IMG/VR virus record: IMGVR_UViG_2778261358_000001
Length of the DNA stretch: 13,563 bases
Direction: 5' to 3' (one strand)
Source of the DNA: a virus
Lineage: Duplodnaviria > Heunggongvirae > Uroviricota > Caudoviricetes
Shown here in pieces: positions 9,001-13,563 of the stretch. The position numbers are program-made. Position 1 is the first letter of the stretch. Each line of letters starts with the position of its first letter.

Positions 9001-12000
9001 CGGCGGCCACCGGGGATTTTTTCTTTGTGATTTCATCAAGCGCATACTTAAAAGCCCTGCTAATCGGACTGATGTCTGATGCCATTCCGAAAGCACACAA
9101 GACCGAAGCAATAAATCTCCAGTCCGTTCTGCTTATCTTCGATTCATGACAGCCAATCATCTTTGCCAGACCGCGCTGGGTAAGCGTTGACAGGTTGATG
9201 AGTAAATCAGTTTCAGCGCGATCAATTTCTCGCTGTGATAGTTTGCTGTAACTTGTTTGTTCCATTTCTTAAGATTTCCAATAGTGAATAGCTAGTTGAA
9301 AGGTATGCGTGGAAACGCATATGGCCTTAGTTGGTCAGATATATTGGGACTCGCTTTGTCAGCGACGTAGGACGAATGTCCATTGTGAAAATAGCGGTGT
9401 TACTTATGCAGCCAGAAGGTTCTTTTTGCTTATTTCAAGCATTTCGCTTGCTTGATATTTGCCACCAGAAATCTCTTCGATTTTTGATGCGTATTTAGTT
9501 TTCCCAAAAAACTCAGTCTTAGGGAGGAAGCCGTTTTTGAGCCACTTATAGACAGCCCTTTCGCTAACTCCACAAGCCTTCGCAACTTCAGGGATGCCGA
9601 CACCTTTAATCGGCTCATCAAGATTTTGCATAGGAATATCCTTTTTCGTACTTTCAGTACGTATTATGGTTGAACTGAAAGTTTTTGCAAGTGCTTTAGT
9701 ATCGTACTCATGGTTCAGAATGAAAAAGTGCGCAAAGAATTCGCCCAGCGGCTAGCGCAAGCCTGTAAAGAAGCTGGTCTTGATGAACATGGTAGGGGAA
9801 TGGCTATAGCCCGTGCCCTTTCTCTTTCGTCCAAAGGCGTTAGCAAATGGTTTAATGCTGAGTCTTTACCGCGTCAGGAAAAAATGAATGCGCTTGCGAA
9901 ATTTCTAAACGTTGATGTTGTTTGGCTTCAGCACGGCACTTCGTTAAATGGAGCGAATGATGAAGATACTCTTTCATTTGTTGGCAAATTAAAAAAAGGG
10001 TTAGTGCGCGTGGTTGGTGAGGCAATTCTTGGTGTTGATGGTGCCATCGAGATGACCGAAGAGCGCGATGGGTGGCTCAAAATTTATAGCGATGATCCAG
10101 ATGCCTTTGGTCTTCGTGTGAAAGGAGACAGCATGTGGCCCAGAATAAAATCAGGAGAATATGTACTCATTGAGCCTAACACCAAAGTATTCCCGGGTGA
10201 TGAGGTGTTTGTCAGAACCGTTGAAGGACACAACATGATTAAGGTTCTTGGCTATGACAGAGATGGAGAATACCAATTTACAAGCATTAACCAGGATCAC
10301 AGGCCTATAACGTTGCCTTATCATCAAGTAGCAAAGGTGGAGTATGTAGCTGGTATTCTGAAGCAATCTCGCCATCTGGATGACATCGAGGCAAGGGAGT
10401 GGCTGAAAAGTTCGTGACTTCATCGTCACATAGCTGGTAACCAGTGGCCTGAAGAGACGTTTGGGTAAGGAGGATAGATGGCGTTCAATGACCTTGAATA
10501 TCAAGCAGTAAAAAAAGAAGTTCACCAATTCATTGAAAGCATAAGGCCGCCTGAACATATCCGCAATGAACTGGATATTGTTTATAGCATCAATGACCAA
10601 ACGATAGATATCGGCGAACAGCGCCCCGTGTGGCAGGGCAATCCAGGTGAAACAAACATCCTGCCATCAGCAAGAATCAAGTACATACGTTCTCTGGATA
10701 GATGGAAAATCTATTGGATGCGGAAGGATATGAAATGGCATCAGTACAGTACTGAACTTTCGCTGACTGATGCGCTTGAGCTTGTGCGTGCTGACCCGGA
10801 TTGCTGCTTCTTCGGATGAGTGAAGAGACGTTTGGATGATGGATGGTCGCAGAGATGCGGCCTGATTCTAAAATAGGATATAAAAAATGAGAATACTAGG
10901 TGTTAGAGCGGCGCCCAAAGTTACATCTTTTGTTGTATATTGCACTAATGAGTCTGCACTCAAATGTGTTGATGTTATTAAAATACCTTCGACCTTAGAC
11001 ACACCAGAAAAATTAAAGTATGTGAGAAATAACATCCTCGACATTCTTAATTTATATAATGTTGAATTAGCTGCCATACGCGTTACTGAATCAAACTCTG
11101 ATAATCTTAGCATTGACCGCCTTTATATAGAAGCTGTTATTCAAGAAGCATTTTCAAGCAGTGATGTAAGAAAATATTACACTATTAGAAAATCTGGCAT
11201 GAAATCATCATTGAACCTAACAGAGATCGAGTATAAAGAAATATTGAAGTCACACCGCAATATAAATGGAATCGATAATTCTGGTTTTACAGCTGAAACA
11301 AATGAAGCTGTTTTGGCTGCACTATCTGCGGAGGTAAGGGGATGCTAACTCCATACAAAAGAGCTGATGTAGAATTCGAATGGATTAGTGATCTAGAAGA
11401 ACAGGGTTGTTTTTCAAAAGTATATCTGGCTCATGACAGACACCTAGCTCATGACTTGGTGATTAAAGAAATAGAAAAAAAAGAAAACACTAACCACGAC
11501 GACTACTTTAATGAAGCAAGGCTTCTCTATAAACATGCACATCCAAATATTGTGCAAGTTCAGTATGCTGCTCAATGTGAGAGCAATATCTATATAGCCA
11601 TGCCATTTTATCATAATGGTTCGCTAAACCAATTAATGAAAAAAAATAATCTTACAAGCAGGGAGATAATACGGTATTCCATTCAATTTTTAAGTGGACT
11701 TTATCATATACACTCAAAAGGTCTTATGCATTTTGATATAAAACCTAATAACATTATGATATCAAACAGAAATGAGGCCATGCTATCTGACTTTGGATTA
11801 TCTCAGTTAGTCAATGAGGAATCGAGAGCTGCGCCTGAGTTTGGATATCATTTTCATGTGCCACCGGAATATTTTTCTTTATCAACAAATGATTATAATT
11901 TCACATATGACATATATCAGGCAGGATTAACCATATATAGAATGTGTGTTGGACATGATAATTTTGAAAGAGAAAGATCTGCATTTAGCACGATTGAACA

Positions 12001-13563
12001 ACTCAGAGAGTCGATAATTAATGGCTGCTATCCATTAAAAGAGTATCCTCCCCATATACATAAAAAATTAATAACAATAGTGAACAAATGCATTCATGTA
12101 GATCCAAATGAAAGATATCAATCCGTACTAGATGTACTAAACGATCTCTCAGCTATAAGTGATGGCGTTCTTGACTGGCGTCTACAGATGACGAAACCAA
12201 CTAACGGCACATGCGAATGGCAAAAAAAGTCTGGGGACGCTATACTGTCTATAGTTTTTGACGCAGAAAATTCGTCTACTACTGGTTTTCGTTTATACGA
12301 TGATGGGCGGAAAAGGCGTGCTACGAACTTAACAATATCCTCAGGATGTACCCCTACAAAACTGTATAGGTTATTAAAGGATAACTGATCATGAAAAAGC
12401 GCGAGGAAGTAAGCAAGCTGCCTCGCAGACGTGATGCAGCATTAGCGGTTCCCTACAAAAAAGATGAGTTCATAAGCCCTTCTGATGACAAAAAATTTTC
12501 AAAGGCGAAAAGTTTTACATCTACATCTCTAAAAGATAAATACTTTAAAATCTAGCCCGGCCTCAGCGCCGGGTTTTCTTTGCCTCACGTTCGCCCACCT
12601 AAAAAACATAACCAATTGTATTTATTGATGTAACTCGCTAAACCATGCAGTTATGATCCCTGCCGCATAACCTTCATCAGCCACATTTTCAAAAATAAAT
12701 TTCCTTATATATCAGAATCATACTTCGTAGAGTTAATAAATCACCAAAATTCGTACCAATAGTTCTTGATAATGTCGAACTACTGGTTCATTATTATCAT
12801 CGTCAGCAGGACGCATTACTCACCAGGTCGGTGAATATACAACGATTCGAATATGAATCTACGGCGCTGACAAAGCGCAATAACCAAAGTGAACTTTGGG
12901 GTGTGGTGAAGGGTTCATGGACGGGAATATGTCGCACGTAAAGCGGCGAGGCCTGCGGGACTATTGCCGAATTGAAGTAGGCCGAAACAGGTCGAAATGG
13001 GTCTCCCACCTACCACACCACCAAAGTTCATCAGGAGGTCTATATGACACGCAGAACTCAGTTCAAAGGCAATTCACGTTCTCGTCGTCGTGAGCGTTTA
13101 AAGGCAAAGGCATTAGCTAACGGCGTACTGGCCCGCGAAGAAGCAATAAGTTCAGAAGTATTACACCGCCCTACTCTAAGCAGAGCGCAGATTCAGGCTA
13201 AAGGTACTCACGAAACGCCTGAGCGCATAGAAGACGCTAAGCCAATTAAGTTCATGGCACAGGACGTGATCTGGCAACAGAAAGAATACAGACGCAATCT
13301 GGAGCGAGCGGCCATTGTGTACGCGAATGAGTTTGGACATAAGCAACCAGAAACTGGTGTATGTCTTCCAAACGTAGCCATTTACGCGGCAGGCTACCGG
13401 AAATCAAAACAACTGACGGCGAGGTGACTTGTGTTGGTCGCCAGAAAATGAAATTAGGCAGCAAACCACTTATTTGAGGTGAGATATGAACCGCCCCGGG
13501 AATCCTGGAGACTAAACTTCCTGAGAAAGAGGTAAACAGGATGACTAAAAATACTCGTTTTTC

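Follow-up and report, generated by a model that had tools for sequence, protein, structure and literature searches.

What do the four genes that follow the repressor gene cI encode in the Caudoviricetes record IMGVR_UViG_2778261358_000001, and do they belong to one system? In the window, by which we mean the whole stretch of 13,563 nucleotides (nt) analyzed here, four open reading frames (ORFs) of 113, 153, 348, and 54 amino acids (aa) lie on the same strand between the cI stop codon and a terminator, the slot in which lambda carries rexAB. Our ORF map and terminator scan agree on this layout with a first-pass annotation of the same DNA, which had read the genes as kinase-centered exclusion cargo expressed in lysogens. 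That reading is supported by the results below. The annotation had also placed the locus beside that of phage 933W, whose kinase Stk was among the first prophage-encoded abortive-infection kinases described. We show here that the locus is the 933W stk immunity region itself, and we consider it likely that its cargo comprises two units: an inserted DUF3024 gene, and a three-gene Stk abortive-infection module in which the kinase has the products of L0083 and L0081 as obligate partners.

The locus is the 933W stk immunity region

Over 2,132 nt (10450 to 12581), the region is 99.9 to 100% identical to 39 phage records, including 933W (AF125520), phi24B, Stx2-converting phage 86, Min27, and JLK-2012. 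Two substitutions separate it from 933W, at 10793 and 11292; they correspond to D106N in the 113-aa protein and A136T in the 153-aa protein, respectively. Both Stk (over 348 aa) and L0081 are 100% identical to their 933W counterparts at the amino acid level. The 933W record gives the gene order L0084, L0083, stk, and L0081, followed by the terminator tM; in the window the kinase is placed directly after cI on the same strand, in the interval up to tM and before nutL and N, as it is in 933W. The earlier description of the locus as merely comparable to 933W therefore understated the match. Its exclusion function is already known from studies of 933W Stk, and there is no new system in this window. 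The suggestion that the cassette might be an undescribed multicomponent exclusion system fails for the locus as such, near-identity to a characterized system being the very result that the first-pass annotation had named as fatal to it. What survives of that suggestion is that the 153-aa and 54-aa genes appear to be true partners of the kinase.

According to published work, stk is cotranscribed with cI, and Stk, little active until HK97 infects, aborts HK97 infection of the lysogen (PMC3564112, PMC3681748, PMC8008677, PMC3430580); exclusion is described there as proceeding through infection-activated tyrosine phosphorylation (PMC3681748, PMC3564112, PMC8008677). Proteomics of phi24B lysogens detected two phage proteins, P2 (17,096 Da) and P3 (13,472 Da), which were mapped to 933W genes adjoining cI and showed cI-like expression (PMC3342100). 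The mass of P2 matches L0083 with the 933W T136 variant (17,066 + 30 Da) and that of P3 matches L0084 (13,473 Da); both proteins are therefore produced in lysogens. No later paper in the searchable literature addresses how Stk stays silent in lysogens or how HK97 switches it on; the two conserved partners described below give a concrete handle on both questions.

L0083, stk, and L0081 travel as one module

The module begins with L0083 (10887 to 11348, plus strand), which encodes a 153-aa RuvC-fold protein, continues with stk (11342 to 12388, plus strand), which encodes the 348-aa Hanks-type kinase, and ends with L0081 (12391 to 12555, plus strand), whose product is a basic protein of 54 aa (pI 10.0; phrog_4063). 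The L0083 stop codon and the stk ATG overlap by 7 nt, and L0081 starts 2 nt past the stk stop. A database search returned 75 clusters of L0083 homologs, and a scan that used the L0083 profile only, with one genome per species, gave 46 loci from alpha-, beta-, and gammaproteobacteria and a cyanobacterium. In all 45 loci with enough downstream DNA, a Stk homolog begins within a few bases of the L0083-homolog stop (35 to 57% identity, C-terminal domain usually included). Look-ups anchored on the kinase likewise found an L0083 homolog of 152 to 155 aa upstream in five of five cases (Elizabethkingia, Pseudomonas, Acinetobacter, Vibrio, and a metagenome), homology being established by tblastn for Elizabethkingia and Pseudomonas and by hidden Markov model searches (E ≤ 4e-53) for the other three. 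Hosts of the trio include a Bacillus phage, Elizabethkingia (Bacteroidota), Pseudomonas, Acinetobacter, Vibrio, alpha- and betaproteobacteria, and a cyanobacterium. The Bacillus example, the SPbeta-like phage SPbetaL7, encodes proteins of 167, 350, and 60 aa (3504 to 5262 of the retrieved stretch) with a kinase 39.5% identical over 329 aa, and offers a tractable second model for the module.

The third gene follows the same pattern: at almost all loci, an ORF of 52 to 68 aa overlaps or abuts the stop codon of the kinase gene. Two motifs recur in these small proteins, K-N-x4-Y-x2-R-[S/A]-x-L toward the N terminus and, toward the C terminus, an aromatic one that reads I-D-x2-F-Y-V-x-F or G-Y-F-x-W; the corresponding stretches of 933W L0081 are PRRRDAAL and KDKYFKI. 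Start and stop codons within the trio overlap or abut, and the three genes are predicted on this basis to be translationally coupled. Pairwise identities of L0083 and of the kinase domain are correlated (r = 0.86 across 41 loci). Among 5,426 complete Escherichia coli genomes, the block occurs in 225 (∼4%), mostly in Shiga-toxin-producing lineages, and it is whole at 224 of 226 places, hardly ever split; the module may shape which temperate phages enter Shiga-toxin-producing strains. Because linkage is strict across phyla, translation appears coupled, and the proteins codiverge, we regard L0083 and L0081 as genuine partners of the kinase.

In prophages of Klebsiella and Proteus, the trio comes directly after repressors that are unrelated. 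Elsewhere its neighbors are Wadjet, a LlaJI-type restriction system with ArdA, Abi_2 with a PRTase gene, or a type I HsdM, and in an Acinetobacter prophage it sits amid tail genes. No conserved fourth gene emerged among 150 neighboring proteins, the commonest families matching only 4 of the 150. This range of settings bears on the possibility that the module mainly controls the lysogeny-lysis decision of its own prophage, in the manner of the KKP kinase-phosphatase module of Pf prophages. Residence within the repressor operon would suit such a role, and a precedent exists in a kinase module, likewise encoded by a prophage, that governs lysogeny as well as defense (PMC11341870). However, no repressor wiring is possible where the trio lies outside prophages, beside Wadjet, restriction-modification, or Abi genes, or among the tail genes of the Acinetobacter prophage, and exclusion of HK97 is documented (PMC3681748, PMC3564112). 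Control of lysogeny as the main function is thus very improbable.

The DUF3024 gene is a separate insert

L0084 (10478 to 10819, plus strand, 113 aa by the ORF map) matches Pfam DUF3024 (E = 2e-31; 108.9 bits against a cutoff of 24.9 bits), phrog_3467, and, over residues 1 to 113, the PADLOC single-gene candidate PDC-S43 (E = 5e-42). It is a candidate defense gene only, as the defense function of PDC-S43 itself has candidate status, and we found no paper on DUF3024 in the searchable literature. A repeat scan showed that an exact 15-nt direct repeat, TGAAGAGACGTTTGG, flanks the gene on both sides (10450 to 10464, at the module junction, and 10821 to 10835). Homology to BP-4795 and many Stx1a phages ends at ∼10466, with the end of cI in common and other genes beyond. 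Approximately 51 Stx2a phages are homologous through cI and DUF3024 up to ∼10843 and carry different cargo beyond, without the kinase module; homology to SH2026Stx1 runs to ∼10861 before its cargo differs; and a Salmonella P22-like phage has DUF3024 without the kinase module. The two repeat copies thus mark the sites at which homology to other lambdoid phages is lost. Only one of the 46 genome loci with the kinase module, that of Proteus penneri, has a DUF3024 gene.

Since L0084 is bracketed by repeats, occurs without the kinase module elsewhere, and is missing from 45 of the 46 module loci, we interpret it as an independent single-gene insert, and the 15-nt repeat resembles a linker by which recombination could exchange the cargo downstream of cI. 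The cassette is two independent units, the DUF3024 gene and the three-gene module (L0083, stk, and L0081). A single four-gene system, as the first-pass annotation had drawn it, is rejected on the ground that DUF3024 assorts independently of the kinase module. In the Proteus penneri locus, the DUF3024 homolog (4555 to 4893 of the retrieved stretch; 38% identity) again lies between the repressor and the kinase trio, and an occasional functional association of the two may exist. The slot between cI and N holds different, uncharacterized genes in two of the phages above, whose cI is the same or similar, and these genes are further candidates for lysogen-expressed cargo: genes of 177 and 44 aa in SH2026Stx1 (4084 to 4925 of the retrieved stretch) and of 95, 218, and 134 aa in BP-4795 (3655 to 4996 of the retrieved stretch).

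The free assortment of L0084 also helps to judge whether Stk alone might be the complete exclusion system, with L0083 and L0081 as unrelated inserts that share its operon. The accessible literature does name only Stk, and other kinase defenses (the PADLOC PD-T4-6 models) are filed as single genes. But a true independent insert in this slot behaves as DUF3024 does, unlike L0083 and L0081, whose linkage to the kinase in 45 of 45 and 5 of 5 loci across phyla and unrelated contexts, overlapping codons, correlated divergence, and rarely split block in E. coli all argue against mere cohabitation. We judge a stand-alone Stk to be quite unlikely.

Organization of the operon

The cargo is framed on its upstream side by cI (9710 to 10417, plus strand), which is annotated as cI in 933W, matches Peptidase_S24 (4e-16) and HTH_3 in Pfam, and opens the PRM (repressor maintenance) operon. 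Downstream it is closed by the intrinsic terminator tM (12554 to 12585, plus strand), also annotated in AF125520, which ends the PRM transcript; the terminator scan placed its hairpin at 12554 to 12575, with an 8-bp stem containing 6 GC pairs and a T-rich tail. The antiterminator gene N (13044 to 13427) is located past tM. A scan for internal promoters found 10 promoter-like sites, compared with 10.3 expected from shuffled sequence, and thus gives no support for a separate promoter. The impression, formed by eye in the first pass, that the block of the 153-aa, kinase, and 54-aa genes is AT-rich is borne out by a G+C content of 35.6% over 10887 to 12555 versus 47.2% in the rest of the window; L0084, at 44.8%, is backbone-like. 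The ORF map also contains minus-strand ORFs inside the region, at 10868 to 11113, 11444 to 11614, and 10151 to 10600, which are antisense to conserved genes and were treated as spurious. The region is accessory cargo of the PRM operon in a prophage with a 933W immunity region.

L0083 has a RuvC fold with a remodeled site

Profile searches of the four proteins against Pfam and PADLOC, which had been proposed in the first pass, identify the kinase (Pkinase, E = 2e-46) and L0084 (DUF3024 and PDC-S43). L0083 and L0081 have no PADLOC v2 model and no name in NCBIfam (June 2026); PHROGs labels L0083 a "RuvC-like Holliday junction resolvase" and L0081 "unknown." L0083 does have the RNase-H-like RuvC fold, and its structural neighbors include the RuvC-like folds of TEFM and of the YqgF-like domains of Tex and Spt6, which are catalytically dead scaffolds. 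In profile comparisons, it scores below the Pfam RuvC (PF02075) gathering threshold (14.2 versus 22.2 bits), and its profile finds no RuvC chain among PDB sequences, only chance MinE matches (E ∼ 0.5); the name "MinE" attached to one L0083 homolog in its source is probably the same artifact. With 461 clusters at 50% identity, the family is a small one; its members are stand-alone proteins of ∼150 to 165 aa, and at E ≤ 1e-3 it stays separate from true RuvC.

Alignment by hhalign pairs L0083 residues 2 to 64 with RuvC residues 3 to 66, with weak E values (0.026 to 0.057). It sets R7 on the RuvC catalytic Asp7 and R65 on Glu66, and in both cases the arginine closes the strand that the RuvC residue closes. 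Among 50 distinct L0083 homologs, R7 is present in all 50; R65, E68, R78, E82, E87, and E140 in 49, the remaining one being gapped; R47 in 49; and D52 in 48. In the C-terminal helix, E140 is the sole conserved acidic residue, and L0083 does not have the acidic tetrad of RuvC (Asp7, Glu66, Asp138, and Asp141 in E. coli). Judged by this conservation, the site is remodeled and conserved rather than decayed. The assignment of L0083 as a canonical resolvase, as in its PHROG and RefSeq labels, is rejected on the catalytic residues, with arginine at the Asp7 and Glu66 positions.

The same residues speak to a scheme in which L0083 is an active nuclease effector: Stk would sense the phage and phosphorylate or activate L0083, which would then cut DNA (branched or replicating, of phage or host) and so abort the infection. 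Against this scheme, the D7 and E66 positions, which are the best placed of the catalytic ones, hold invariant arginines in 50 homologs, the Pfam RuvC score falls short of its threshold, and the structural neighbors include the inactive scaffolds named above. Moreover, what is described for HK97 exclusion is broad tyrosine phosphorylation and not DNA degradation, both in one study (PMC3681748) and, reportedly, in Friedman 2011. We consider a nuclease effector unlikely.

The kinase and its C-terminal domain

The kinase domain of Stk occupies residues 21 to 260 (11402 to 12121, plus strand) by its Pfam Pkinase match. The catalytic residues are present (K42, E58, H130-F-D132, N137, D150-F-G, P-P-E174-176, D190, and R258), the catalytic motifs are nearly invariant among 36 family members, and Stk has the catalytic Lys, alpha-C Glu, HxD-x4-N, DFG, and APE-like motif of Hanks-type kinases. 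The claim that all kinase motifs are intact holds with two qualifications: the Gly-rich loop is degenerate (QGCFSKV), and the catalytic loop, with HFD in place of HRD, marks a non-RD kinase. The C-terminal extension of ∼80 aa reported in the first pass is real and is kept throughout the kinase family (members of 337 to 353 aa); in Stk it contains a beta-sheet domain at approximately residues 274 to 348 (12161 to 12385, plus strand). Mean pairwise identity is 30% for this domain and 20% for the small protein, compared with 50% for L0083 and 52% for the kinase domain, and such fast divergence would fit specificity or sensing surfaces.

A silent kinase with a fast-evolving small partner could also be a toxin-antitoxin or addiction module, with Stk as the toxin, L0081 or L0083 as a labile antitoxin, and HK97 exclusion as a by-product of the shutoff of host gene expression. 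Stk activity is lethal once unleashed and otherwise silent (PMC3681748). The module is carried on mobile elements, and the small protein, which is largely low complexity, has in its short R-[S/A]-x-L motif what may be interpreted as a resemblance to a kinase substrate or pseudosubstrate. On the other hand, there is no homology to known antitoxins, and three genes are kept, not two. A specific HK97 gene product, gp41, reportedly identified as the trigger by Friedman and colleagues in 2011, would further argue for specific sensing. On balance, we regard an addiction module as unlikely.

A proposed mechanism

In a lysogen, the cargo is transcribed with cI from PRM, and the transcript stops at tM. 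We propose that L0083 and L0081 would act as subunits or regulators of Stk rather than as passengers. By analogy with dimeric RuvC and with pseudonuclease scaffolds, L0083 would most likely, together with L0081, hold Stk in an inactive complex. An invading phage would be sensed by this complex, or by the two parts of it that evolve fast, the kinase C-terminal domain and the small protein; the released Stk would then phosphorylate host proteins broadly, so that growth stops. Because arginines occupy the canonical catalytic positions of L0083, we prefer a complex that inhibits or senses to a nuclease effector, and we conjecture that the R-[S/A]-x-L motif of L0081 is a substrate or pseudosubstrate.

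Several points weigh against this interpretation. The accessible literature attributes exclusion to Stk alone (PMC3681748, PMC3564112, PMC8008677), and if stk alone suffices for exclusion, L0083 and L0081 are at most modulators. Strict linkage shows that the genes share a function without showing which, and the inhibitory-complex and sensing roles are putative. The mapping of R65 onto Glu66 comes from a weak profile alignment and strand positions, and the invariant E68, three residues on, could in principle substitute for Glu66.

More broadly, we tentatively propose, with somewhat less than even confidence, that Stk is the catalytic subunit of a compact cross-phylum three-gene antiphage system. 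Its parts would be a RuvC-fold protein in which two invariant arginines remodel the nuclease site, a Hanks kinase whose C-terminal domain evolves fast, and a basic protein of ∼55 aa that bears the substrate-like R-[S/A]-x-L motif. In such a system, the RuvC-fold protein may be a junction or DNA sensor or a phospho-regulated partner, and the small protein may be a pseudosubstrate brake. We found no description of this trio architecture in the searchable literature.

The rest of the window

Outside the immunity region, the Q antiterminator and an HNH-AP2 endonuclease (1163 to 1675) resemble those of HK629, not 933W, and a TerB/TciA-like gene (275 to 778), tRNA-Gly(tcc) (875 to 949), and tRNA-Asn(gtt) (1034 to 1108) resemble those of JLK-2012. 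Because the late-regulation end of the window (positions 1 to 2400) is not 933W-like, we consider the source to be a mosaic lambdoid prophage that has only its immunity region in common with 933W. On the minus strand, the nin region carries a Rha/ANT-type antirepressor (3037 to 3765) and a P63C-domain protein (3911 to 4978), the latter in a stretch whose G+C fraction (∼0.40 to 0.45) is below that of the rest of the window. A Dam-family N6-adenine methyltransferase (5142 to 5669, minus strand) is split into two ORFs, 5421 to 5669 (Pfam positions 1 to 80) and 5142 to 5393 (positions 92 to 167), and is probably a frameshifted or interrupted pseudogene.

Comparison with known systems

The kinase domains of MADS MAD6, Mokosh, and BREX kinases are similar to that of Stk (PADLOC mad6, E = 7e-50), but the mad6 match is confined to the kinase domain (model positions 61 to 337 of 659). 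The NCBIfam MAD6 equivalog cutoff is not reached (122 versus 460 bits), the window contains no MADS partners, and none of the other genes of the MADS, Mokosh, and BREX systems is present. Lambda RexA/RexB occupy the same slot (after cI, on the PRM transcript, and before the terminator and pL) and follow the same logic of lysogen-expressed abortive infection, although RexAB is biochemically an ion-channel-type system and Stk is a kinase. Neither Pfam nor PADLOC returned a Rex family for any of the four proteins; only genomic position is common to the two. Compared with the RuvC resolvase and with pseudonuclease RuvC-like domains such as that of TEFM, the L0083 family is distinguished by arginine in place of catalytic Asp7 and Glu66 throughout.

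Stk2 of Staphylococcus epidermidis and PD-T4-6 of E. coli are, like Stk, Hanks-type kinases that protect by abortive infection, and the kinase domain of Stk scores against the PADLOC models for PD-T4-6 (best E = 1e-37). Whereas Stk2 and PD-T4-6 are filed as stand-alone genes, Stk has a C-terminal domain of ∼75 aa and two obligate neighbors without a PADLOC model, and the recurrence of the same two flanking genes in 45 of 45 and 5 of 5 loci sets it apart from a stand-alone kinase. This suggests that defense-annotation tools overlook two components when they score the kinase as one gene. The system closest to the one in the window is 933W Stk (Tyler & Friedman 2004; Friedman et al. 2011), which is the same gene in the same slot after cI with no sequence difference in Stk; what our analysis adds to that literature is that stk and the "hypothetical" genes on either side of it, L0083 and L0081, form an inseparable set across phyla.

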